A stretch of DNA of 49,463 nucleotides from a virus (lineage: Duplodnaviria; Caudoviricetes), in the IMG/VR virus record IMGVR_UViG_3300012943_000012, positions 1 to 49,463 of that record. One strand, given 5' to 3'. This document shows positions 2,232 to 49,463 of this stretch, piece by piece. The first letter of the stretch is position 1. Every line of letters starts with the position of its first letter. Below the pieces are notes generated by a model that saw only the letters and a program-made list of their open reading frames with translations, was not told where the DNA came from and ran no database searches. The translations under genes and the position numbers were made by a program.

Positions 2232-3902
2232 TTGTCCACATGTTTGGTAAAGATCCCACATGATAAGTGTGGTAGTAGTGATGCCCTCCAAGTCTTTGAG
2301 AATGATGATAAGACTGTAAGTGGCTATTGTTTCAAGTGTCACACTTATGTAGCCAATCCGTTTGGTGATCAAGTGGATGCTAGTGTCATTAAGGAAAAGT
2401 ATCCAGTAAAGGTTAGCAAATCTAAGGAAGAGATTAAGCAGGAGATGCAGGAAATCTTTGAGTTAGATTCCTGTGATCTTGCTGAACGTAAACTTAGAAA
2501 GTCTAGTTTGGATGCCTTTGGAGTTAAGGTTGGTTATGATGAGTCAGATGGTAAGACACCTAGACTCGTATTCTTTCCTTATACTAAGGATGGTGATATT
2601 GTCAAGTACAAGGTCCGACTTCTCGGTCAGAAGAGGATGTGGTCCATTGGTATTGACAAAGATGTAGATTTGTTTGGTTGGGAACAAGCCTTGGGTTCAG
2701 GTGCCAAGAAGATCATCATTACTGAAGGTGAGTATGATGCCATCGCTATGCGCAGAATCCTGGAGACCTACACTACAGAATCCTATAAGGATTATATGCC
2801 TGCTGTGGTCTCACTTCCCGATGGTAGCAGTTCTGCTACTAAGGCCATCACTAAGGCCTATCCCAAACTAAAGAAAACATTCACTGATGTAATCCTAGCC
2901 TTTGATCAAGATGAGGCTGGTAAGAAAGCAGTGGAAGATGTAATGCGTATCCTACCTGATGCTAAGGTAGCTGAACTTCCTTGTAAGGATGCTAATGAAG
3001 CCATTCTAAAGGGTATTGGTAAGGCTGTATGGAGGGCTGTCACATTCGCTGCTGACAAGCCTAAGAACACCAGACTAATCAAGGGTAGCCAACTTAGAGA
3101 GGCTGCCATGAGACGTCCTGAGATGGGGTTAAGTTGGCCATATGAAGGTCTCACGAAACTTACTCGAGGCATTCGAAGAGGTGAGACTTATTACTTCGGT
3201 GCTGGCGTTAAGATGGGAAAGAGTGAGTTGGTTAATGACATTGCCAAGCATCTTATGGTTGTTCATGATCTACCTGTTATGTTGTGTAAGCCCGAAGAAG
3301 ATAAGGCTGAAACTTATAGGCGTCTGGTCGGGAAAGTGGCAGGAAGAATTTTCCATGACCCAGACGTAGAGTTTGACGAAGAAGCATTCCTTGCTGGTGA
3401 TAAACTTGTTGGTGATAAGGCCATCGTTGTAGATAATTACCAGTTTGTTAACTGGGATAACTTGAAGGATGATATCCGTTATGCAGTTGGTAATGAAGGC
3501 GTACATGATATTATCATTGATCCAGTTACCTGTTTTACTTCTGGAATGTCTGCTAGTGATACGAATGAATTTTTGGTCTCATGGTCTGCCGAGTTGTCTT
3601 CGATGGCGAAGGATCTTAACTTCACTTCGTACATCTTCTGTCACCTCAAGGCACCTGAAAGTGGTGCACCACACGAACGTGGTGGACAAGTTCTGAGTAC
3701 ACAGTTTACTGGCAGCCGAGCAATGATGAGATCCTGTCATCTAATGGTGGGTTTGGAAGGTAATAAAGATCCTGAGTTGGCTCTTGAGGAACGTAACATT
3801 CGTAAGCTCAAGATCCTTGAGGATCGAAACTTTGGTGCCAGTGGTGTAATTAAACTCTACTGGGACTACAAAAGTGGAATGTTTAATGAGATGAGGGTGT
3901 AG
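2232..3902 (+). CDS. T7 gp4-like primase-helicase
   Basis: N-terminal Zn finger, TOPRIM (EGEYD, FDQDEAG), Walker A variant AGVKMGKS, IIIDP. Confidence 0.95.
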   Translation: MSTCLVKIPHDKCGSSDALQVFENDDKTVSGYCFKCHTYVANPFGDQVDASVIKEKYPVKVSKSKEEIKQEMQEIFELDSCDLAERKLRKSSLDAFGVKVGYDESDGKTPRLVFFPYTKDGDIVKYKVRLLGQKRMWSIGIDKDVDLFGWEQALGSGAKKIIITEGEYDAIAMRRILETYTTESYKDYMPAVVSLPDGSSSATKAITKAYPKLKKTFTDVILAFDQDEAGKKAVEDVMRILPDAKVAELPCKDANEAILKGIGKAVWRAVTFAADKPKNTRLIKGSQLREAAMRRPEMGLSWPYEGLTKLTRGIRRGETYYFGAGVKMGKSELVNDIAKHLMVVHDLPVMLCKPEEDKAETYRRLVGKVAGRIFHDPDVEFDEEAFLAGDKLVGDKAIVVDNYQFVNWDNLKDDIRYAVGNEGVHDIIIDPVTCFTSGMSASDTNEFLVSWSAELSSMAKDLNFTSYIFCHLKAPESGAPHERGGQVLSTQFTGSRAMMRSCHLMVGLEGNKDPELALEERNIRKLKILEDRNFGASGVIKLYWDYKSGMFNEMRV

Positions 3903-3943
3903 TATGTTTGACATGGAACTGTTTCTAGAATGGGCGGCTATGT

Positions 3944-4435
3944 ATGCTGGCGAAATCTGAACTTGAGTGCTTCTATTATGAGAACTATGACAGTCTAGTC
4001 AAGCGTACTTCCAGTAGATGTGGTAGCCCATTTGATGCTGAAGATATTGTACAGACAGCTTTTGAGAAGGCTCTAAGATATTGGAAGACGTACACTGAAG
4101 GTACCCATCTTGACAGATGGTTCAGTGTTATTCTTAATAATACTTTGAGAGATCATCAAAACGCTGTAAGAATGGGTCCTGTAACCAAACCTCTTGAAGA
4201 ACATCTTGATGACATTGAACCTATCATTCCTAATGATGTGCTTCCTGTAATCAGACAGGATATCAAGAATATGGCTAAAGCTGAGGCTGAACCTACACGA
4301 ACAGTGCTTAGACTTCACTTAGATTTTGGGTTCACTTGTGGAGAGATCAATGATCTAATGCAGGGCTTGACATATCGTAAGATCAATGATATGATTAAAG
4401 TCTTTCAGAGAAAAGTAATCAAGAGGTACGAATGA
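3944..4435 (+). CDS. ECF-like RNA polymerase sigma factor
   Basis: Region 2 motif DAEDIVQTAF...WFSVILNNTLRD and a region 4 HTH-like C-terminus. Confidence 0.85.
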   Translation: MLAKSELECFYYENYDSLVKRTSSRCGSPFDAEDIVQTAFEKALRYWKTYTEGTHLDRWFSVILNNTLRDHQNAVRMGPVTKPLEEHLDDIEPIIPNDVLPVIRQDIKNMAKAEAEPTRTVLRLHLDFGFTCGEINDLMQGLTYRKINDMIKVFQRKVIKRYE

Positions 4436-36764: not shown

Positions 36765-37197
36765 CAGTATCTCCAAGGGAAGTCCTACTTAGGGCTACCA
36801 CAAGTCTTCCTTAGACAAGGAGGTAGATAATATGTATAAGCCTTATATAAGGAAAAGTCCTAGGAGAGTGGCTCTTGATCTACTACATGTTCTTTTCTCT
36901 TTAATGCATGCTCTTTCTTCGAAAGCTCTTCTCTCGAAGAGAGTATTCCTTACGTAGTAAGAACTATGCTCTCTTATACTTTTCTTACGCTTATATACTA
37001 TATAACCTCATTTTTAGGCATTTTAGGACAAATTATTTTCATTAATTTTAATTTATTTTTAGGAAGTGTTATAAATCATATACTTAGCTATTAGCTATAT
37101 TTTCCTTTAGAAATTCTTAAGGTGTATTGCACCCATATAAGCACACCCCCGACCCCCCTTTAGCCCCCTTAACATTTCCTTAGCATACGCCAGCGTA

Positions 37198-37206
37198 TGT
37201 TATAAT
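37198..37206 (+). promoter_or_regulatory. Candidate extended -10 sigma70 early promoter
   Basis: TGTTATAAT facing the early arm. Confidence 0.5.
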
Positions 37207-37443
37207 GTATCATGGGGGGTGCAATAACACCCGGGTATAACCTTCATCTAACCTTAGTTTAACATCTCCTTAACTATCAATGTGTTACATACGCGCACGC
37301 CTGGTTCCTCATATGTGCATGCCCTAATGCATGCCAACCTATGACTAATGGCATAGGCCATATGGCATATAGACTCTCCTCCTCGACTGTGTCAATCTAT
37401 CTCCACGGTCAGGCAATGACCTAGATGCAGCAAGGCTGGCAGC

Positions 37444-37977
37444 CAACTGGCAACAGTTGTAGCACCCACGTCCTTGTCATACCTAGGGCATCACCTACCC
37501 AGCTAAGCGAGACGCTAGTGGTTAGCCTCGGTCCATGAGACCAGCCCCATTCAGCTAACGTTCAGTGAACCCGTAGTATGATTCATCCATGAGTTGGGCA
37601 ACCAACTATGAGTGTTCAGGAACTAAGGTCCGGCCGGAAGGCGCAGGCTTAGGGAGAGTTGCACTCATGCCAACCTGAGCCATAATCAGGCTGCCGAGTC
37701 GGAGGCAAAAACCGAAAGAGTCGCGGTGCAGGCATCGATGAGTGCACCCCCGCTACCATCGCGGGCAACATGAGGTTGAGGGAGTAACAGGCTTACAACC
37801 TGTGAAAGCTAGGCTTCTGGATGGGTGAGCAAAGGACGAGACCACGTCTCAAGCAGTCCCCTCACAAGGTTGGGCAACCAAGGATAAGAATCCTAGGCGA
37901 AGCCTAACTAGCCCTCATTAGGGCAGCAAGCTAAGGCTTGCTCATATACCTTGTGTCTAGTTAGGATCAGGGTATAT
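37444..37977 (+). ncRNA. Candidate large structured RNA/leader (~540 nt)
   Basis: No credible ORF; about 20 hairpins, GNRA loops and long-range helices. Confidence 0.6.
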
Positions 37978-38011
37978 CATCAAGCCTTAACTAACACAAC
38001 AGGACAAGACC

Positions 38012-38143
38012 ATGATCAAGTATATGTTCTTTGCCTCAAGGGATGAAGCTGGTCAGTTCATTCTTAATCATAGGGTAGACGGTGGTATGTGCTACTACGT
38101 TGGCATGAATGGTAATGATCACGAAGTGAGGGTCATCGTATGA
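38012..38143 (+). CDS. 43-aa early protein
   Basis: AGGA RBS; ATGA overlap with next gene. Confidence 0.6.
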   Translation: MIKYMFFASRDEAGQFILNHRVDGGMCYYVGMNGNDHEVRVIV

Positions 38144-38307
38144 ATCATCGTGATCGTGATGCTCACACCAATGGGTTTAAGATGGGTGGCATGAGTCAGG
38201 GCTACCGTCCGAAGGACACCATTGATGGTGCTAAGATTATTATCTACATCATCACCATCCTGATCCTTGCCAAGTGTGTGGCTATGTTCATCGGAGGACT
38301 ATCATGA
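38140..38307 (+). CDS. 55-aa early membrane protein
   Basis: ATGA overlaps at both ends; C-terminal TM. Confidence 0.6.
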   Translation: MNHRDRDAHTNGFKMGGMSQGYRPKDTIDGAKIIIYIITILILAKCVAMFIGGLS

Positions 38308-38555
38308 GAAAGCCTGACACCCGCATCAAGTTCATGTCAGCCCAAGCTAAGCGTGAGGCTCGTGTTAATCACCTTCGTTCCGAAGGAACACCTGAAGCAA
38401 GGGCTGACCTTAAGAAGATGAACACCATTGTTCTTCACTCAGGGTCGGCTAGTGTCAAGGGTATGTGGGGACGTAATCATCCCCTCAAGGCTAAGGTGAA
38501 TGCTAAGACAAGGCATCACCTGAGTGCAGCTAAGGCTATAATGGCTGGACGCTAA
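38304..38555 (+). CDS. Basic early protein
   Basis: GGAGG RBS. Confidence 0.7.
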   Translation: MRKPDTRIKFMSAQAKREARVNHLRSEGTPEARADLKKMNTIVLHSGSASVKGMWGRNHPLKAKVNAKTRHHLSAAKAIMAGR

Positions 38556-38634: not shown

Positions 38635-39243
38635 ATGACCGCCATCAAGTACAACCTCCCGAAGACCACGGAAGAACTCAACAAGACGCAGGATAAGGCC
38701 ATCAAGGCCGCCAATAGTGCCCGTAAGCTCATTCAGCAGGCTCTTGTAGCCACTGTGCATCATCTGGCTACCAACCATGACGTACGTGTGGCTCGTCGTC
38801 TGGTGGACGGCCTGAGTGAAACTGTGCGGGGCAAGGCTCTTGTGGCTTGGCTCGTCAAGTATGGTCATCTTACCATCGGTAAGGTGGACCTTGAGGTTGA
38901 GGGTAAGACCATCAAGGTGGAAACCTTCGATGGCATCAAGGGTGATGCTGATGCACATAATCAGCTTATCCGTGATAGCTGGGAGGAAGCCAAGGCCACG
39001 ATGTGGTGGACTGCCATCAAGGCTGACAATGCCTATAAGGGCTTTGACCTGAATGAATACCTCAAGGCTGGCATTGCCCAGCTTCAGAAGGCTCAGAAGA
39101 AGGTCGAGGAAGGTAAGGCTGACCCGTCCACGGTGAGCACCGAGGTTAATGACGTGGTGATCAAGGCCATCATTGCCTTCGCCAAGTTTGATGTTATCGG
39201 CGAGGTGGCTAACCCGGACGAAGTGCAGGCTGAAGCCGCATAA
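38635..39243 (+). CDS. Early hypothetical protein (202 aa)
   Basis: AAGGA RBS, strong codon bias. Confidence 0.85.
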   Translation: MTAIKYNLPKTTEELNKTQDKAIKAANSARKLIQQALVATVHHLATNHDVRVARRLVDGLSETVRGKALVAWLVKYGHLTIGKVDLEVEGKTIKVETFDGIKGDADAHNQLIRDSWEEAKATMWWTAIKADNAYKGFDLNEYLKAGIAQLQKAQKKVEEGKADPSTVSTEVNDVVIKAIIAFAKFDVIGEVANPDEVQAEAA

Positions 39244-41732: not shown

Positions 41733-41810
41733 GCGCCTATAGCTCAGTTGGATTAGAGCAGGGGACTTCTAAGCCCATGGTCGGCGGTTCGAGTCCGTCT
41801 AGGCGTACCA
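41733..41810 (+). tRNA. tRNA-Arg(TCT)
   Basis: Acceptor GCGCCTA/TAGGCGT, D arm, loop CTTCTAA, GGTTCGAGTCC, encoded CCA. Confidence 0.92.
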
Positions 41811-41815
41811 CTTCA

Positions 41816-41888
41816 GCGTCCATAGTTCAATTGGTAGAATCTCAGGTTTCCAACTTGGTTGTTGTGAGTTCGAGTCTCACTGGACGCT
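41816..41888 (+). tRNA. tRNA-Gly(TCC)
   Basis: Acceptor GCGTCCA/TGGACGC, loop TTTCCAA, GTTCGAGTC; followed by CCG rather than CCA. Confidence 0.9.
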
Positions 41889-41992
41889 CCGCCTTCCCTA
41901 AGCCCCTACAAGGGCTTCCTAACAACTCCCTAATACCAACCCTAAGGGGTGGCTCTAGAAAGGGCTTACAGAGGCTTACAGACGTGTTCACG

Positions 41993-43602: not shown

Positions 43603-43737
43603 ATGAAAGTTTCTACCAGCACACTTACGAACCAACAGATTGAAAACCTAGTAGCTAAAGGTTACCAAGTGGTGATCAATGCTGACGAGGAATTCGCTGA
43701 TATCACCAAGGTGGTGGTTGAGGAAACTGTCCAGTGA
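43603..43737 (+). CDS. 44-aa hypothetical protein
   Basis: AAGGGA RBS; GTGA overlap with the GGCT gene. Confidence 0.55.
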   Translation: MKVSTSTLTNQQIENLVAKGYQVVINADEEFADITKVVVEETVQ

Positions 43738-44081
43738 GCCACCTAATTTTTGTATATGGAACCCTTAAGCAGGGCCATGGTAATCATCGCCTGATCCATG
43801 ACCAGAAGTTTAAGGGTATTGGTGTGTCTGAGGAGAACTTCCAAATGTATAGTTTGGGGGGTTTCCCGGGAGTTGTCGCAGGATCTAAGGAGATCGTGGG
43901 AGAACTGTATGAGGTTGATGACCTCGCCTTTGAGCGTTGTGATAGGCTTGAAGGTCATCCTCACTTCTATAAGCGTGAGCAGGTTCAAGTGATGAATGAA
44001 GAATTTGAGGATGTCTTGGCCTGGATTTATATTTATCAGGGTAAGACAGAAGGGCTGGAGGCTGTTGACGAATGGAAGTGA
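43734..44081 (+). CDS. Gamma-glutamylcyclotransferase (AIG2-like)
   Basis: FVYGTLK...N, GELYEV, DRLEG...Y. Confidence 0.9.
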   Translation: MSHLIFVYGTLKQGHGNHRLIHDQKFKGIGVSEENFQMYSLGGFPGVVAGSKEIVGELYEVDDLAFERCDRLEGHPHFYKREQVQVMNEEFEDVLAWIYIYQGKTEGLEAVDEWK

Positions 44082-44914
44082 TCTCTGAAGAACTGCTAAT
44101 TAAGGCTAGAGATAAGGTTAACAGTCTATTGAAAAGTGGGGAATTCAGAGATCGTGATGCTCTGATCACCACTGGTATTGTGGCAGCTTATGTGTTGGTG
44201 TATGCTCATGAGGGGATTACCCCCTGTCACCAGATGTGCATGGCTCAGCTTAGAGGAACAATAGCTAAGGCTGCCGTCTGCCACATCCAAGGTGGTGCTC
44301 GTACAGTCCAGCCCATGACTGATGAAGAGGCCATCCGCTACCTTCAATATCTGATGGACAATGATATGTTCAAGGGAGCTTTCCTTAAGCACAATGCTGA
44401 GGAAGCTATGGCTGAACGTATGGTTTACCACGATCTTAACAGTCTTCCTGCCAATCAGGCTATGTGGGCTATCACAGCCACTCGTGCCCTATGGGAATCA
44501 CCCTTCAGCAAGGTGCCTAGCTGTTTCTGTAAGCTAGTGGATGCTGGTCTCAGTCCTGACTATAGTTATATTATGGCTCACTATCTCGAACCTAGTGGTG
44601 ATGGGTTTGTCCTCAGTGAGTTTAGGGGTAATAGTAATCATGCTGTAGTGTCGATGTATAATTTTGATGAAGTGTCCCTTAGGAACTTTATGAAACATAA
44701 AATCACTCTGCTTGCTCCTGGCCCTATTAGTGCTGGTAATGGTTACACCAAGTCTTATGGTGGTGGCTCCAGATATTCCATCTTTCAGTTATTTAAAGAT
44801 GAATATGAGTGTAGGGACGCGTTCATCCCCCTGAAGAAAATCCTCACTGATAAGTTGGGTAACAAACAGATTAGTCCAGAACAACTTAAGGCCTTGGAGG
44901 CTGATTATGCGTAA
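44072..44914 (+). CDS. Hypothetical protein within the ligase cluster
   Basis: 280-aa ORF overlapping both neighbours. Confidence 0.8.
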   Translation: MEVISEELLIKARDKVNSLLKSGEFRDRDALITTGIVAAYVLVYAHEGITPCHQMCMAQLRGTIAKAAVCHIQGGARTVQPMTDEEAIRYLQYLMDNDMFKGAFLKHNAEEAMAERMVYHDLNSLPANQAMWAITATRALWESPFSKVPSCFCKLVDAGLSPDYSYIMAHYLEPSGDGFVLSEFRGNSNHAVVSMYNFDEVSLRNFMKHKITLLAPGPISAGNGYTKSYGGGSRYSIFQLFKDEYECRDAFIPLKKILTDKLGNKQISPEQLKALEADYA

Positions 44915-45497
44915 GGTATTTGTTGTTGGTGGTAGCCGTGGCCTATGTAGTTGGTTCAACTCAGCTGGGTTTGAGACCACTGATGAGCCACTTAAGGCTG
45001 ATATCTTCCAGTTCATGGGTGGTGAAGATGTATCACCCGAGTTGTATGGACAGAAGAATACCGCCAGCTATAACAACTTCCAACGTGACATGAATGAGAT
45101 GGCCTACTTTGGGTTGGCCAAGCGGATGGATATCCCCATGATTGGTATTTGTCGTGGTGGACAATTCCTTAATGTCATGTGTGGTGGTGAGATGATCCAA
45201 CATGTGGATGGCCATGCTGTTAGTAAGGGTCACACACTTAAGATCATTCAAGAATTTGGTGATGATAAGGAAATTCATGCCACATCCACACATCATCAAC
45301 TTATGCTCCCTGATTATCGTAAGGCTGAGCTTTTGGCTTATGCCACAATTGTGGGAGATAGTGACCCAGAAGTTGTCCTCTATGAGGACGATCGTTGTAT
45401 CTGTTTCCAGCCGCACCCTGAGTACCCTCATAGCAGTAAAGAGCTTCAAGAGTATTACTTCTCGCTAGTCAACTCCCTTCTTTCTAAGGATTTCTGA
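44907..45497 (+). CDS. Class I glutamine amidotransferase (peptidase C26-like)
   Basis: GGEDV, GICRGGQ nucleophile elbow, STHHQ, QPHPE. Confidence 0.9.
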   Translation: MRKVFVVGGSRGLCSWFNSAGFETTDEPLKADIFQFMGGEDVSPELYGQKNTASYNNFQRDMNEMAYFGLAKRMDIPMIGICRGGQFLNVMCGGEMIQHVDGHAVSKGHTLKIIQEFGDDKEIHATSTHHQLMLPDYRKAELLAYATIVGDSDPEVVLYEDDRCICFQPHPEYPHSSKELQEYYFSLVNSLLSKDF

Positions 45498-45498
45498 A

Positions 45499-45957
45499 AT
45501 GCAGATCCATGAATTTCCCTATTGCTGTAAGGCACGTATCATCTCCAGCTTTGGTGCTGGCCATATCGGTGAGAATGATGACTATCTCAAGGCCCGAGGT
45601 ATTAGTGATCCATCTAAGGCCCGCGCCAAACGTTATTCCAAAGAAGAAGTCTTGGAATACCTTAAGAAGAATATTGAAGGTATGCGTAGCCTTGGTATCC
45701 ATGTAGTGTTTGCCTGTCCCACCAGCAATCAGCCTGAAGCCATTGAGGCCCTTGAAGAGTTTGGTTTCTTTGGTATTCCTGAGGGTGAACGTGCACATGG
45801 CAATAAGGTGCATTATTGTGGACACACTAAACCCAACAATTACGTTCCTGATAAGACTAATATTAAGGTTACCGTTGACCATTATATGGTACCTATGTTC
45901 TATTCCATTCCGTGTATTAGCGAAGAATACGCTGAGCAGTGGACTACCCTCAACTAA
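45499..45957 (+). CDS. Hypothetical protein
   Basis: AAGGA RBS; PYCC motif. Confidence 0.7.
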   Translation: MQIHEFPYCCKARIISSFGAGHIGENDDYLKARGISDPSKARAKRYSKEEVLEYLKKNIEGMRSLGIHVVFACPTSNQPEAIEALEEFGFFGIPEGERAHGNKVHYCGHTKPNNYVPDKTNIKVTVDHYMVPMFYSIPCISEEYAEQWTTLN

Positions 45958-46010
45958 GTTAACCAATGCTGACTGTCTAAATTTCCCCTAAATTTTAAGG
46001 AGAGATTCCC

Positions 46011-47444
46011 TTGTGCGGAATCGTAGGATGTGTGGGCAAGATTTGGAAGGCTGAAGAAGAGGCCTTCAAGTTGCTCCTCCAACTTGATACTATCCGTGGT
46101 CCTCATTCCACGGGTGTTCTTAGTGTATCGACCAATAATAAGGAAGACCTCACTTGGTTGAAGTCTGTAGGTACGCCATGGGAACTGTTCGAACTGGATG
46201 ATTGGCAGAAGCTAATTGGTCCTCGATCACATCGTGTACTTTTAGGACATAATCGTTGGGCTACCTCTGGTAAAGTTACCAATGAGAATGCTCACCCATT
46301 TGAGCATGGAACCTTCACAGGTGTACATAATGGCACCCTTCGGGCTCAACATCGGCTTAAGGACCATAAGGATCATGAGGTTGATTCCTCAAACATCTAT
46401 TATAATATGGCCCATGAAGGTGTTGAGGATACCCTTAAGAAACTTGAGGGTCCGTTTGCCTTGGTTTGGTATGATAGTGCCGAAGGTAAGCTCCAGATGG
46501 TCCGTAATAGTGAGCGTCCCTTGTGGATCTGTAAAACCACAGATGGTGATACTTACTTCTGGGCATCTGAGCCATGGATGATGAGAGTTGCTCTCAACAA
46601 GCATGGGATTAAGCACGGGGATCCTGTTGAGCTTGAGCCGGGGAAGTTGGTGTCCTTTGATGTTCCGTTTGGGTTTGGTAAGAAGGGTGAGTTTAAACCG
46701 TCCATCAAGGATGTTGAGTTCTATAAGTATGTTGCTCCTCCACGTGAGGATAATGACTACTACTCCCAACATCACTGGGCCCAGCGTCGTAGTGGTGGTT
46801 ATGGCTACCATTCTGGCTCTGCTGTTAACAGCAGTAATACAGGGGGTGGGCGTAATAACGTTGTCCCTTTCGTAAAGCCGGGAGTTGGAGTAGACTCCTT
46901 AAAGCTGTATTTGGGTAAGACTGTCGTCTTCTCTGTCATTGGTGAACGCACCAGCAATAAGCAGGATTATATTCTTGCTGAGGTTGAGGATCATCTAGCA
47001 CCTCAGGTACGTGTCTTCACTCCACCTAAGAAGAAGCTGGGTAAGTTGTTACTCGGCAGTGAGATGTTGTTCCGTGGTAAGGTCAAGTCCTGTACTGCTC
47101 AGGAGAAGTTTGGTAATTATCTGACTCTTGACCATCGGACCATCATTCCTGTTGTTCAGGAAGAAATGGTAGAGCTTCTCAATACTTTTGAGAAGACTAA
47201 CGAGATTCATAAGCAGCGTGTTGAAGATGTTCCTGAGGAAAAGTTTGTCTCTGGTTTCAGGGGCCTTATGATTCCTTTGGACCAGTGGTTTAAGAACACT
47301 GAGAATGGTTGTTCTTGGTGTCGTGATTTTGCCAAAGTATCTGAAGCTGAAGAGCTTATGTGGCTCAAGAGTGACGAATATCTCTGCCCGCTTTGTCAGG
47401 TGGATGATGAAGTCTTGTCTATGATCAATTTGCCTGATAGGTAA
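46011..47444 (+). CDS. Class II (Ntn) glutamine amidotransferase with C-terminal Zn finger
   Basis: MCGIVG, RG, GHNRWAT, HPF, HNG; CSWC...CPLC; TTG start after AAGGAG. Confidence 0.92.
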   Translation: MCGIVGCVGKIWKAEEEAFKLLLQLDTIRGPHSTGVLSVSTNNKEDLTWLKSVGTPWELFELDDWQKLIGPRSHRVLLGHNRWATSGKVTNENAHPFEHGTFTGVHNGTLRAQHRLKDHKDHEVDSSNIYYNMAHEGVEDTLKKLEGPFALVWYDSAEGKLQMVRNSERPLWICKTTDGDTYFWASEPWMMRVALNKHGIKHGDPVELEPGKLVSFDVPFGFGKKGEFKPSIKDVEFYKYVAPPREDNDYYSQHHWAQRRSGGYGYHSGSAVNSSNTGGGRNNVVPFVKPGVGVDSLKLYLGKTVVFSVIGERTSNKQDYILAEVEDHLAPQVRVFTPPKKKLGKLLLGSEMLFRGKVKSCTAQEKFGNYLTLDHRTIIPVVQEEMVELLNTFEKTNEIHKQRVEDVPEEKFVSGFRGLMIPLDQWFKNTENGCSWCRDFAKVSEAEELMWLKSDEYLCPLCQVDDEVLSMINLPDR

Positions 47445-47447
47445 TCC

Positions 47448-48260
47448 ATGAAAATCCTTGTTGGTGCAGACCCCGAGTTGTTTGCCTTCGATAAAGAAAC
47501 TCCGGTTAGTGCGTTTGGCCTGATCAAAGGTACCAAGTATGAGCCCTTCAAGGTTCAGGATGGTGCTGTTCAGGTGGATGGTATGGCTCTTGAGTTCAAC
47601 ATTAACCCCGCTGAGAATGAGGCTGAGTTCATTAAGAACCTCAACAGTGTGATGAGCAGCCTTAAGAGTATGGTTCCGGATTTTGATATCCGTGCTGTAC
47701 CTGTGGCTGAATTTGGTATTGACTACATCCTTGAACAGCCTCAGGAAGCCGTTGAGCTGGGCTGTACGCCCGACTTTGATGCTTGGGCTAATGGTAGTAT
47801 CAATGAGCCTCCGAATGCCATGATGCCCTTTAGAACGGGTGCTGGACATGTCCACATTGGTTGGGTGGAAACTAATGATGCCAGCGAGTATGACCCTGAT
47901 CATCTTGAAAAGTGTGTCAGTGTAATCAAGCAGCTGGATTTCTTCCTTGGCCTTCCATCCTTGTTCTATGACAAGGGTGTTAAGCGTCGTACCATGTACG
48001 GTAAGCCGGGGTGTTTCCGTCCTAAGACTTATGGTGCTGAGTATCGTGTCCTGAGTAATCAGTGGCTAGAGTCTGATGCACTTAAAGGTTGGGTCTTCCG
48101 TAACACTAAGGAAGCTCTTGAGCGTCATGAGAAGGGTGATCTGGTTTATAATCAGGTTAACACCAAGATTCTCAAGAATCTGATGGATGCAGAACCGGAT
48201 CTTATTCGTGTCCGTAAGATGCTGGATAAACTTAATATCGAGATCCCTAAGGTGGCATAA
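47448..48260 (+). CDS. phiEco32-like COOH-NH2 ligase (type 2)
   Basis: GADPE, DGMALE, GCTPD, AGHVHIG, RR..YG..G.FR, GAEYR. Confidence 0.9.
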   Translation: MKILVGADPELFAFDKETPVSAFGLIKGTKYEPFKVQDGAVQVDGMALEFNINPAENEAEFIKNLNSVMSSLKSMVPDFDIRAVPVAEFGIDYILEQPQEAVELGCTPDFDAWANGSINEPPNAMMPFRTGAGHVHIGWVETNDASEYDPDHLEKCVSVIKQLDFFLGLPSLFYDKGVKRRTMYGKPGCFRPKTYGAEYRVLSNQWLESDALKGWVFRNTKEALERHEKGDLVYNQVNTKILKNLMDAEPDLIRVRKMLDKLNIEIPKVA

Positions 48261-48832
48261 TGTACGGGAATGATTTCGCCTACGCTCAGTCAAGAATCCA
48301 AGGGACTATCCTGAGGGTTAAGAAGACTGGAGAGCCGGTTTATGTGTACATTGTTAACGGTGGTGGTCAGTGTTCTGTAACCCCCATTGAGAGAGATTGG
48401 GGCGGTGAAGCCACTGTGACTATGCATGTAGATGACCTTGATATGCATCCGGTGCCACTTGGGTATGTTAACTCAGCTGGCGAAGCCACTTATCTTATGC
48501 GTGTTCCCATGCGCAGGGATTGGAAACAGGGGCTACGTCAGGAAAACTGTTGGTCTTCTGGGCGTCGTCTTAATAGTATCCCCATGAAGGATCTTAAGAA
48601 CTGTATCATTGGACGTTTCCCATCCTTTGAGACGGCTCTTAAGGATGTTGTAAAATCTGGTGAAAAGGCTAAGAACAAGATCATTGCTTGGCATCGTCAC
48701 TGGGCTGTATCCACTGATGGTCGTGTGTTCTATAAGAACCATGAACAGGTTGGTACCATTTTAGATGGTCATGTTGATTTGTTCCCTTCACACAAATATC
48801 TGGCTGAGGTGCTTGAGGAGAGTTTTAAATGA
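48260..48832 (+). CDS. Hypothetical protein of the ligase cluster
   Basis: LGYVN...R.P.R..WKQGL motif; overlaps both neighbours. Confidence 0.8.
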
Positions 48833-49463
48833 CAACAGTGTTTAAGGAGATGGGCATCCGTATAGCTGAGAAGGGTGACATTGGCCTTGAAATTGAGGTG
48901 GAAGGTGTTAACCTCCCTCGTCTTGGTAAATGGTGGAGAAATGAACAGGATGGCTCCCTTAAAGGTCCGGAGAATGCTGAGTATGTTCTTCAGAAGCCCG
49001 GCTCACTTGAAGATATTAGAGCAGCACTTAATCATTTGGATTCTGTATATAATCAGAGTTCCACTGTTGTGCATGATACTGTTCGTGCTGGTGTGCATGT
49101 TCACATCAATTGTCAAAACCTAACTATGACCGAACTGTACAACTTTGTCACCCTATATCTCTGTCTTGAGAATATTCTGGTAAAGTGGTGTGGTGAGTAC
49201 AGGGAAGGTAATCTATTCTGTCTTCGAGCTTGTGATGCTGAATGGATGCTATCTGTCCTTAAGCTGGCAGCCTCAGATAAGAAGAGACAGTTTAAGAACC
49301 GTTTGCATAGGGATGAACTACGCTATGCAAGTATGAACCTTAAGGCTCTTGGTGATTATGGTAGCCTTGAGTTCCGTTCTATGCGTGGTACACGTGACCT
49401 CAATTTGATCTACACTTGGGCTGAGACCTTGTATGGTCTCCGAGAGTATGCCAAGACGTTTGA
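48829..49463 (+). CDS. Amidoligase, 5' part (continues across the junction to 376)
   Basis: GAGGAG RBS; GLEIEVE, DGSL, E, GVHVH, RY..MN and GSLEFR motifs; missed by the ORF track because it runs off the end. Confidence 0.88.

Follow-up and report, generated by a model that had tools for sequence, protein, structure and literature searches.

The DNA analyzed here (the window) is a complete virus record of 49.5 kb (49,463 nucleotides) with direct terminal repeats. Its gene content and order are of the Zobellviridae type, with a replication/amidoligase arm on the + strand and a structural arm on the − strand, and its major capsid protein is 73.7% identical to its counterpart in PA11-like phages of Pseudomonas. 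Because of this capsid match, the agreement of the genome end with that of phage GP100, the promoter motif and the family of a neighboring protein (see below), the host is probably a Pseudomonas. A C-rich motif on the + strand (37144–37170), which also opens the linear GP100 record and was aligned with locus L142, likely marks the start of the terminal repeat and the physical left genome end. This would place the region studied here, 37444–37977, about 300–830 bases inside that end, at the head of an early arm of approximately 27 kb. The region contains open reading frames of only 20–40 aa, none being longer than 40 aa. Downstream of it, on the same strand, are a gene (38304–38555) whose small basic product was assigned to the gp1 family of phiKMV and LUZ19 (phrog_5722), and a gene for a phrog_1448 protein (38635–39243), which was used as a synteny marker. 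Among 44 window proteins scanned no phage RNA polymerase was present, only a sigma factor, whose gene (3944–4435) follows the amidoligase cluster. This cluster (43734–49463 and 1–2030) comprises gamma-glutamyl cyclotransferase, glutamine amidotransferase, COOH-NH2 ligase, amidoligase and RimK-like genes, the last being of the ribosomal protein S6 glutaminyl transferase type. Genes for tRNA-Arg(TCT) and tRNA-Gly(TCC) are located in the early arm at 41733–41890.

The preliminary description of the window had proposed that a new large, structured + strand RNA heads the early arm. Protein-anchored and motif searches located the element in the same slot in five uncultured relatives (L001, L002, L126, L130 and L142), of which L001 is 72% identical to the window over 352 nt. 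A core alignment of the six genomes, which are not fully independent since L002 and L130 are closely related, was built with the structure placed by hand. In this alignment 97.1% of 210 cells were paired and 20 of 35 base pairs displayed changes on both sides. When the partners were slid out of register, pairing dropped to 32–41%, and none of 500 shuffles reached the values of the true alignment. The count includes the pseudoknot PK2, two pairs of which are changed on both sides in L142. The + strand is indicated to be the RNA by a U-G pair of arm C that never varies, by PK2 pairs that change from C-G to U-G, and by the orientation of the promoter. The compensatory changes thus sustain the proposal, and we regard it as nearly certain that the element is a real structured RNA; its boundaries and fold as first given had to be redrawn from the relatives.

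Beyond these relatives, direct searches yielded little. A blastn search of the region and two homologs against 50,697 phage records returned nothing useful, and a pattern derived from the core had no match in 185,579 prokaryote genomes. A pattern search of metagenomes gave nine matches, comprising the new homolog L130, the L001 contig, the window's own contig and six that were discarded as chance. A loose pseudoknot descriptor (4–24 of 40 shuffles matched, while the window itself was missed) and a scan for PK1 singly (39 of 170 shuffles matched) were too unspecific to be used.

The predicted element is a conserved fold of about 350 bases on the + strand with three pseudoknots and an anticodon-like loop. 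A variable domain at the 5′ side is followed by two small H-type pseudoknots, PK0 (37667–37690; stems 37667–69/37681–83 and 37674–78/37686–90) and PK1 (37692–37715; stems 37692–95/37704–07 and 37699–702/37712–15). The first stem of PK0 has only 3 bp in the window, and all four pairs of its second stem show two-sided changes. The pentanucleotide GTCGC (37720–37724), invariant in all six genomes, has no consistent pairing partner and is apparently unpaired. Stem A (37725–37748; two-sided change in 4/8 pairs) carries a 2×2 purine internal loop. Next comes stem B (37749–37765), whose loop (37756–60) pairs with 37820–24, 64 nt downstream in the window, to form PK2; stem B and PK2 are each 100% paired, with two-sided changes in two of five pairs. 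Between the PK2 strands lies arm C (37769–37819), an arm of fixed length with two-sided changes in 5/8 pairs and one invariant U-G, the tip of which (37787–37803) is a 5-bp stem with the 7-nt loop CUUACAA. Helix D (37825–29/37861–65; 4/5 pairs changed on both sides) encloses a variable insert and is followed by AAG. Further 3′ are domain E (37868–37909), hairpin F (37911–24) and hairpin G (37925–42), and then, ahead of the first ribosome-binding site, a long stem (37932–53/37968–89). Instead of pairing locally, the 3′ half of hairpin G can open this long stem, an overlap which recurs in the relatives.

Seven helices of the preliminary description were checked by coordinate and all are present in 37444–37977: three GCAA hairpins, ATGAGTG/CACTCAT (7/7 paired), 37491–502/37817–28 (11/12), CCTTGT/ACAAGG and CAACCT/AGGTTG. 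The remaining motifs named there also occur within the region, and GGTGCA/TGCACC, CCCGC/GCGGG, ACAGG/CCTGT and GCC-GGAA-GGC are supported by comparison with the relatives. The multi-domain fold said to be closed by long-range helices did not survive this comparison: the bases of 37491–502/37817–28, CAACCT/AGGTTG and CCTTGT/ACAAGG covary within other helices, so that all three conflict with the covarying fold. Neither the pseudoknots nor the anticodon-like loop nor the PhoP-type promoter had been recognized in the preliminary description. Because L001 has an equivalent 11-bp upstream complement, an alternative fold might still form in a longer transcript. The first GCAA hairpin was unsuitable as a family marker, since the alignments of 119 viral loci containing its 16-mer never extended beyond about 30 nt. 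Folding energy, which had been suggested as a check, is weak evidence and favors neither strand (z-score of 37444–37977: −2.6 on + and −2.8 on −), 16% of 50 windows of the genome having values below −2. In 150-nt windows only 37851–38075 stands out (−5.3 and −4.6), and the conserved core (37626–37850) has a z-score of about 0.

Analysis of the sequence upstream of the fold revealed a direct repeat, RTTCAG-N5-RTTCAG, at 37549–37565 (+), the sole exact match in the window. This copy reads ATTCAG-N5-GTTCAG and agrees with the P. aeruginosa PhoP consensus GTTCAG-N5-RTTCAG as given in PMC3156716 and PMC7916210; G/ATTCAG is described in the latter as the ChIP motif for PhoP. A −10 hexamer, TATGAT (37577–37582, +), is located 11 bp behind the PhoP-type box, so that the window has such a repeat directly upstream of a −10 element. 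The box is found in four of the five relatives, always in the leader. In four records searched in full, all six copies were in the leader, and the reversed control gave none. L002, L130, L126 and L142 have a −10-like hexamer at a comparable distance behind the box. Judged from this arrangement, transcription would start near 37589 and the promoter may be activated by PhoP. Such a start would leave outside the RNA the first 145 bases of the region as first drawn (37444–37588), which do not align in the relatives. An extended −10-like element at 37198–37206 (+), not reported by a promoter scan requiring a −35 match, could give a 5′-extended transcript covering the 5′ hairpins noted first. The TTCAG repeat was rejected as an RNA hairpin, as L002 and L142 break the pairing yet keep the repeat. 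In two of the relatives several PhoP-box promoters follow one another upstream of small early ORFs and of the RNA, with three copies in L126 and two in L142. L001 has no PhoP box; another repeat with an 11-bp period, CTTCAC-N5-CTTCAC, precedes a −10-like hexamer there (L001:2800–2835), which suggests another host response regulator. A palindromic stretch containing GGCAT upstream of the promoter (window 37338–37369 and L001:2766–2797, 27 of 32 positions identical) is possibly a protein-binding site.

A gene-free block of 380–475 nt occupies the same slot in PA11-like phages, with a sigma70 promoter directly upstream in 13 of 14 loci. Neither blastn nor nhmmer matched these blocks to those of the window group, and a covariance model built from the six genomes had no match in 11 loci comprising those of PA11-like phages, LUZ19, KBC54, Pecta and CW02. 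The wider family consequently rests on topology, spacing and synteny. A strict descriptor, drawn up on the same sequences of both groups and covering B, PK2, C and D together with the AA behind D, matched the syntenic place in PA11, TC6, O4, HHBS10_2, L156 and L157, against a background of two matches in 297 kb of shuffled sequence and five off-target matches in 379 kb. L152 and L154 were matched on the wrong strand, which was scored as off-target, and no core was found with this descriptor in Pecta, Asterion, CVT22, CW02, VPMCC5, T2S2, J8-65 or L158. Using a relaxed descriptor, the core was located in 16 of 17 regions, the exception being C171; helix D of L154 differs here from the reading by eye. 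As only fully paired B and PK2 were accepted, the informative part of this result is the variety and spacing of the pairings. PK2 is formed by nine different pairings in the 16 sequences; of 72 cross-combinations between them, just 7 are fully paired. The distance from loop to partner is 65–70 nt in 13 of the 16, the three longer ones containing inserted hairpins. The tandem arrangement of PK0 and PK1 was detected in 13 of 18 regions compared to 14 of 216 shuffles, the search windows of five autographiviruses having been placed by hand, and was missed in L001, L142, KBC54, C171 and LKA1. Taken together, homology with the PA11-like blocks is very likely.

The interiors of the PA11-like blocks are of at least four types. 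PA11 (L124:3073–3500) and O4 (L155:1314–1780) have both block ends in common while their middles are unrelated. A 5′ motif of the PA11 type was found at 120 loci, nine of them in promoter context; the rest were dropped. An rrn-type boxA lies upstream of the early genes in L124, L125, L154–L156, L161–L167, L144, L146, L158 and L159, which belong to Pecta, CW02 and the PA11-like and J8-65-like phages; the window group lacks it. Further early leaders that are poor in genes and look structured occur at L158:2570–3040, L143:1050–1600 and on the reverse strand of L144 at about 3530–4200; the J8-65-like, Asterion and Pecta leaders do not fit the descriptor of this element. In the early leader of GP100, about 500 nt upstream of its structured block, a type II hammerhead ribozyme was identified (L123:573–644; RF02276, 39.8 bits, gathering score 37).

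Arm C measures 51 nt in 10 of 15 sequences despite differing in sequence, and 54 nt in the window. In 11 of 15 sequences the arm, when folded alone with no motif required, ended in a loop closing on RCAA; L001 and L126 form this hairpin with two more pairs closed, whereas other folds were obtained for O4 and TC6. The tip loop follows the pattern Y-U-N-R-C-A-A on a stem of 4–5 bp, a pattern that, on such a stem, matches that of anticodon loops. The first position is a pyrimidine in 14 of 16 and the second a U in 15 of 16; positions 4–7 were required in the search that yielded the 16 sequences and the U was not. Exceptions are L130, which lacks U33, and GP100 and L154, which have 8-nt loops. In the window the stem of about 5 bp with the 7-nt loop CUUACAA has the form of an anticodon arm (Y-U-N-N-N-R-N), and positions 34–36 would read Val. 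The would-be anticodon varies among the sequences (UAC, GGC, GAC and AGC; Val or Ala type) and therefore fits no single tRNA. No intramolecular partner of at least four pairs was found for the window tip loop. In five PA11-like sequences (PA11, TC6, L156, L157 and L197) a UUGU at a common offset of 72–75 nt upstream is a possible partner of the tip, which makes a tertiary contact a live alternative role for the loop.

The small basic protein encoded next to the element belongs to a family of 135 clusters, and 117 of 119 tblastn matches were in Pseudomonas phages. The member from Kantovirus C171 matches ORF1 of phiKMV and the corresponding genes of LUZ19v, PollyC, KBC54 and PA11, and LUZ19 gp1 was matched by an alignment of the family (E 3.7e-6). 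Members from LKA1 and phi-2 have arginine-rich N-termini. No Pfam family and no usable Atlas match were obtained for the protein, and its structure model was of low confidence. Its charge and its linkage to the element invite the guess that it binds RNA.

The gp1 family connects the locus to LUZ19 and other phiKMV-like phages. In LUZ19, tandem pseudoknots are predicted in the same slot, and the published transcriptome lists there a 420-nt transcription unit without genes, TU010, which begins at promoter P005 (1284) and stops at 1704, a 3′ end fed by five promoters and with no terminator type assigned (PMC10914365). In that study 1284–1704 is given only as a transcription unit; its ncRNA table is limited to RNAs below 250 nt and its main text does not appear to discuss the interval as an ncRNA (PMC10914365). 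Strong early promoters in this part of LUZ19 are also described in PMC3604761, where read pile-ups are explained as a 5′-end effect. By our prediction the 3′ end at 1704 falls inside the 5′ arm of a long stem before gp1. The transcript supports a discrete RNA in the syntenic slot of a distant phage and not in the window genome itself. In LUZ19, PollyC, KBC54 and C171 neither PK2 nor the tip loop was detected, and homology with the LUZ19 and PollyC blocks is moderately probable, and that for the 5′ half only. RefSeq places a 42-aa gp0.1 across the 3′ part of the LUZ19 block, which may be a misannotation over RNA. A hairpin common to LUZ19/phiKMV, KBC54 and C171 carries a loop ending in GCCAA that resembles a Gly anticodon (L290:1673–1702; L292:2256–2286; L178:1219–1250).

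To the extent of the databases searched, the element is uncatalogued. In agreement with the expectation that it is new, no Rfam family matched it: with Rfam 15, only the two tRNAs of the window reached the gathering score, the region gave one 10-bit chance match at E up to 10, 18 related loci gave tRNAs and one hammerhead outside the element, and eight further loci gave none at E up to 1. A tmRNA would have a tRNA-like domain with a CCA end and a tag frame; ARAGORN and Rfam detected no such domain, and the ORFs have only 20–40 aa. For self-cleaving ribozymes and group I/II introns there was likewise no Rfam match, and no fit with their known topologies was recognized. A literature search that covered mainly open-access papers found no description of this RNA. 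We conclude that it is a real large phage RNA without an Rfam entry, best filed with the large ornate phage RNAs.

What such an RNA does can be argued from its features. That it is a discrete, processed RNA is probable. The host RNA polymerase would transcribe it within minutes of the onset of infection, while the end of the genome is being taken into the cell. The long stem would serve as an RNase III-type site, and a cut near 37945 would free the RNA from the early transcript, whereupon hairpin G could form a protected terminal 3′ end. The neighboring basic protein might then bind the RNA, and the anticodon-like loop would be presented to host proteins that recognize tRNAs, e.g. anticodon nucleases. 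Phages are known to counter tRNA-cutting defenses. We tentatively prefer this reading, an early processed, trans-acting, tRNA-like decoy RNA, because arm C is of fixed length and its loop shows the pattern described, because release of the RNA from the mRNA is predicted, and because the block interiors are swapped between close relatives, while giving it less than an even chance. Swapped middles such as those of PA11 and O4 are as expected under host-driven selection. A counterpoint is that the element has no CCA end and received no tRNA or tmRNA call from ARAGORN or Rfam. The broadest version holds that therapeutic Pseudomonas phages of the Zobellviridae and phiKMV-like groups share first-made, processed RNAs, with a three-pseudoknot anticodon mimic opposing tRNA-targeting immunity as RNA only, and with one branch driven by PhoP; as a whole it is rather doubtful.

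The element could instead act in cis as an antiterminator, the nascent RNA promoting read-through of the early arm alone, as put does, or with the basic protein, as in N/nut. Its position directly behind the early promoters, an early arm of this length in a genome whose scanned proteins include a sigma factor and no phage polymerase, and the basic, partly arginine-rich protein family would suit this role, as would the GNRAA-type loop of hairpin F in PA11-like phages, which recalls lambda boxB. The window leader has no boxA beside a hairpin of the nut type between 36.7 and 38.7 kb, allowing up to two mismatches. However, PA11-like phages already have the rrn-type boxA upstream of the RNA, LUZ19 keeps the slot despite its own polymerase, and neither a defined 3′ end nor an arm of fixed length is necessary for antitermination, so that we consider this function possible but doubtful.

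Shape conserved over sequence, in an RNA that is large, ornate and phage-encoded, would also be expected of a structural, RNA-only oligomer of the ROOL/GOLLD kind or of a nuclease-resistant leader protecting early mRNA, and kissing contacts could be made through a tip loop of the U-turn type. Yet the window tip loop is not self-complementary, Rfam reports no match to ROOL, GOLLD or OLE, and the element is smaller than these and does not lie beside the tRNA genes at 41733–41890; a structural or stabilizing role therefore appears unlikely. Equally, the pseudoknots and the loop might dock on the small ribosomal subunit, boosting early phage translation or tying up ribosomes, for which tmRNA and the dicistrovirus IRES elements are models. 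Several pseudoknots, a size of about 360 nt and the anticodon-like arm are compatible with this, and GOLLD, which binds ribosomes in pull-downs, provides a precedent (PMC12286853). Against it stand the lack of a tRNA-like domain or tmRNA call and of a codon-like partner for the window tip, the ordinary ribosome-binding sites of the downstream genes and a predicted cut that would part the RNA from the mRNA, and we hold ribosome binding to be improbable. Finally, the inverted repeats might only resemble RNA structure and belong to a DNA element (an injection stop, origin or packaging signal), as the proximity to the genome end and the strand symmetry of the folding energy would allow. The changes in arm C and PK2 that hold only on the + strand, the covariation of the pseudoknots, the placement of the promoter and the LUZ19 transcript all point to RNA, making a DNA element very improbable.

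Unlike most such finds, this large phage RNA class has cultured counterparts: the core topology recurs in PA11, O4, TC6 and GP100, and a related block with a mapped transcript is present in LUZ19/phiKMV. Its function is therefore testable in laboratory strains. If the preferred reading holds, counter-defense by RNA would gain a new form, an anticodon decoy held on a scaffold; if the RNA is an antiterminator, one of this size would also be new. That a lytic phage apparently wires its first transcript to the host regulator PhoP is a separate surprise.

Several known systems resemble the element in part. LUZ19 TU010 shares with it host promoters, a gene-free block of similar size with tandem pseudoknots, the long stem, gp1 and gp3; it differs in having a sigma70 promoter instead of a PhoP box, no detected PK2 or anticodon-like tip and no covariance-model match. 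Put RNA of HK022 and lambda nut/N are likewise structured RNAs right behind an early promoter with a small basic protein encoded adjacent, whereas the element is about five times longer, contains three pseudoknots, has no boxA in the window leader and is predicted to be released by processing. The T7 early leader with its RNase III sites combines left-end host promoters with an irregular stem of considerable length upstream of its first gene; here, by contrast, the released 5′ piece would itself be a conserved tertiary fold. With tmRNA the element shares size and several pseudoknots, and with the thrS operator and plant-virus tRNA-like structures an anticodon-like stem-loop, but it has no acceptor stem, CCA end, T-loop or tag frame, and its triplet is not fixed. 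As described in PMC12286853, ROOL and GOLLD are also large, pseudoknotted and phage-encoded; at about 350 nt the element is shorter than the 659-nt ROOL and than GOLLD, which often exceeds 800 nt, and it lies at the left genome end before a gp1-like gene rather than near tRNA islands.
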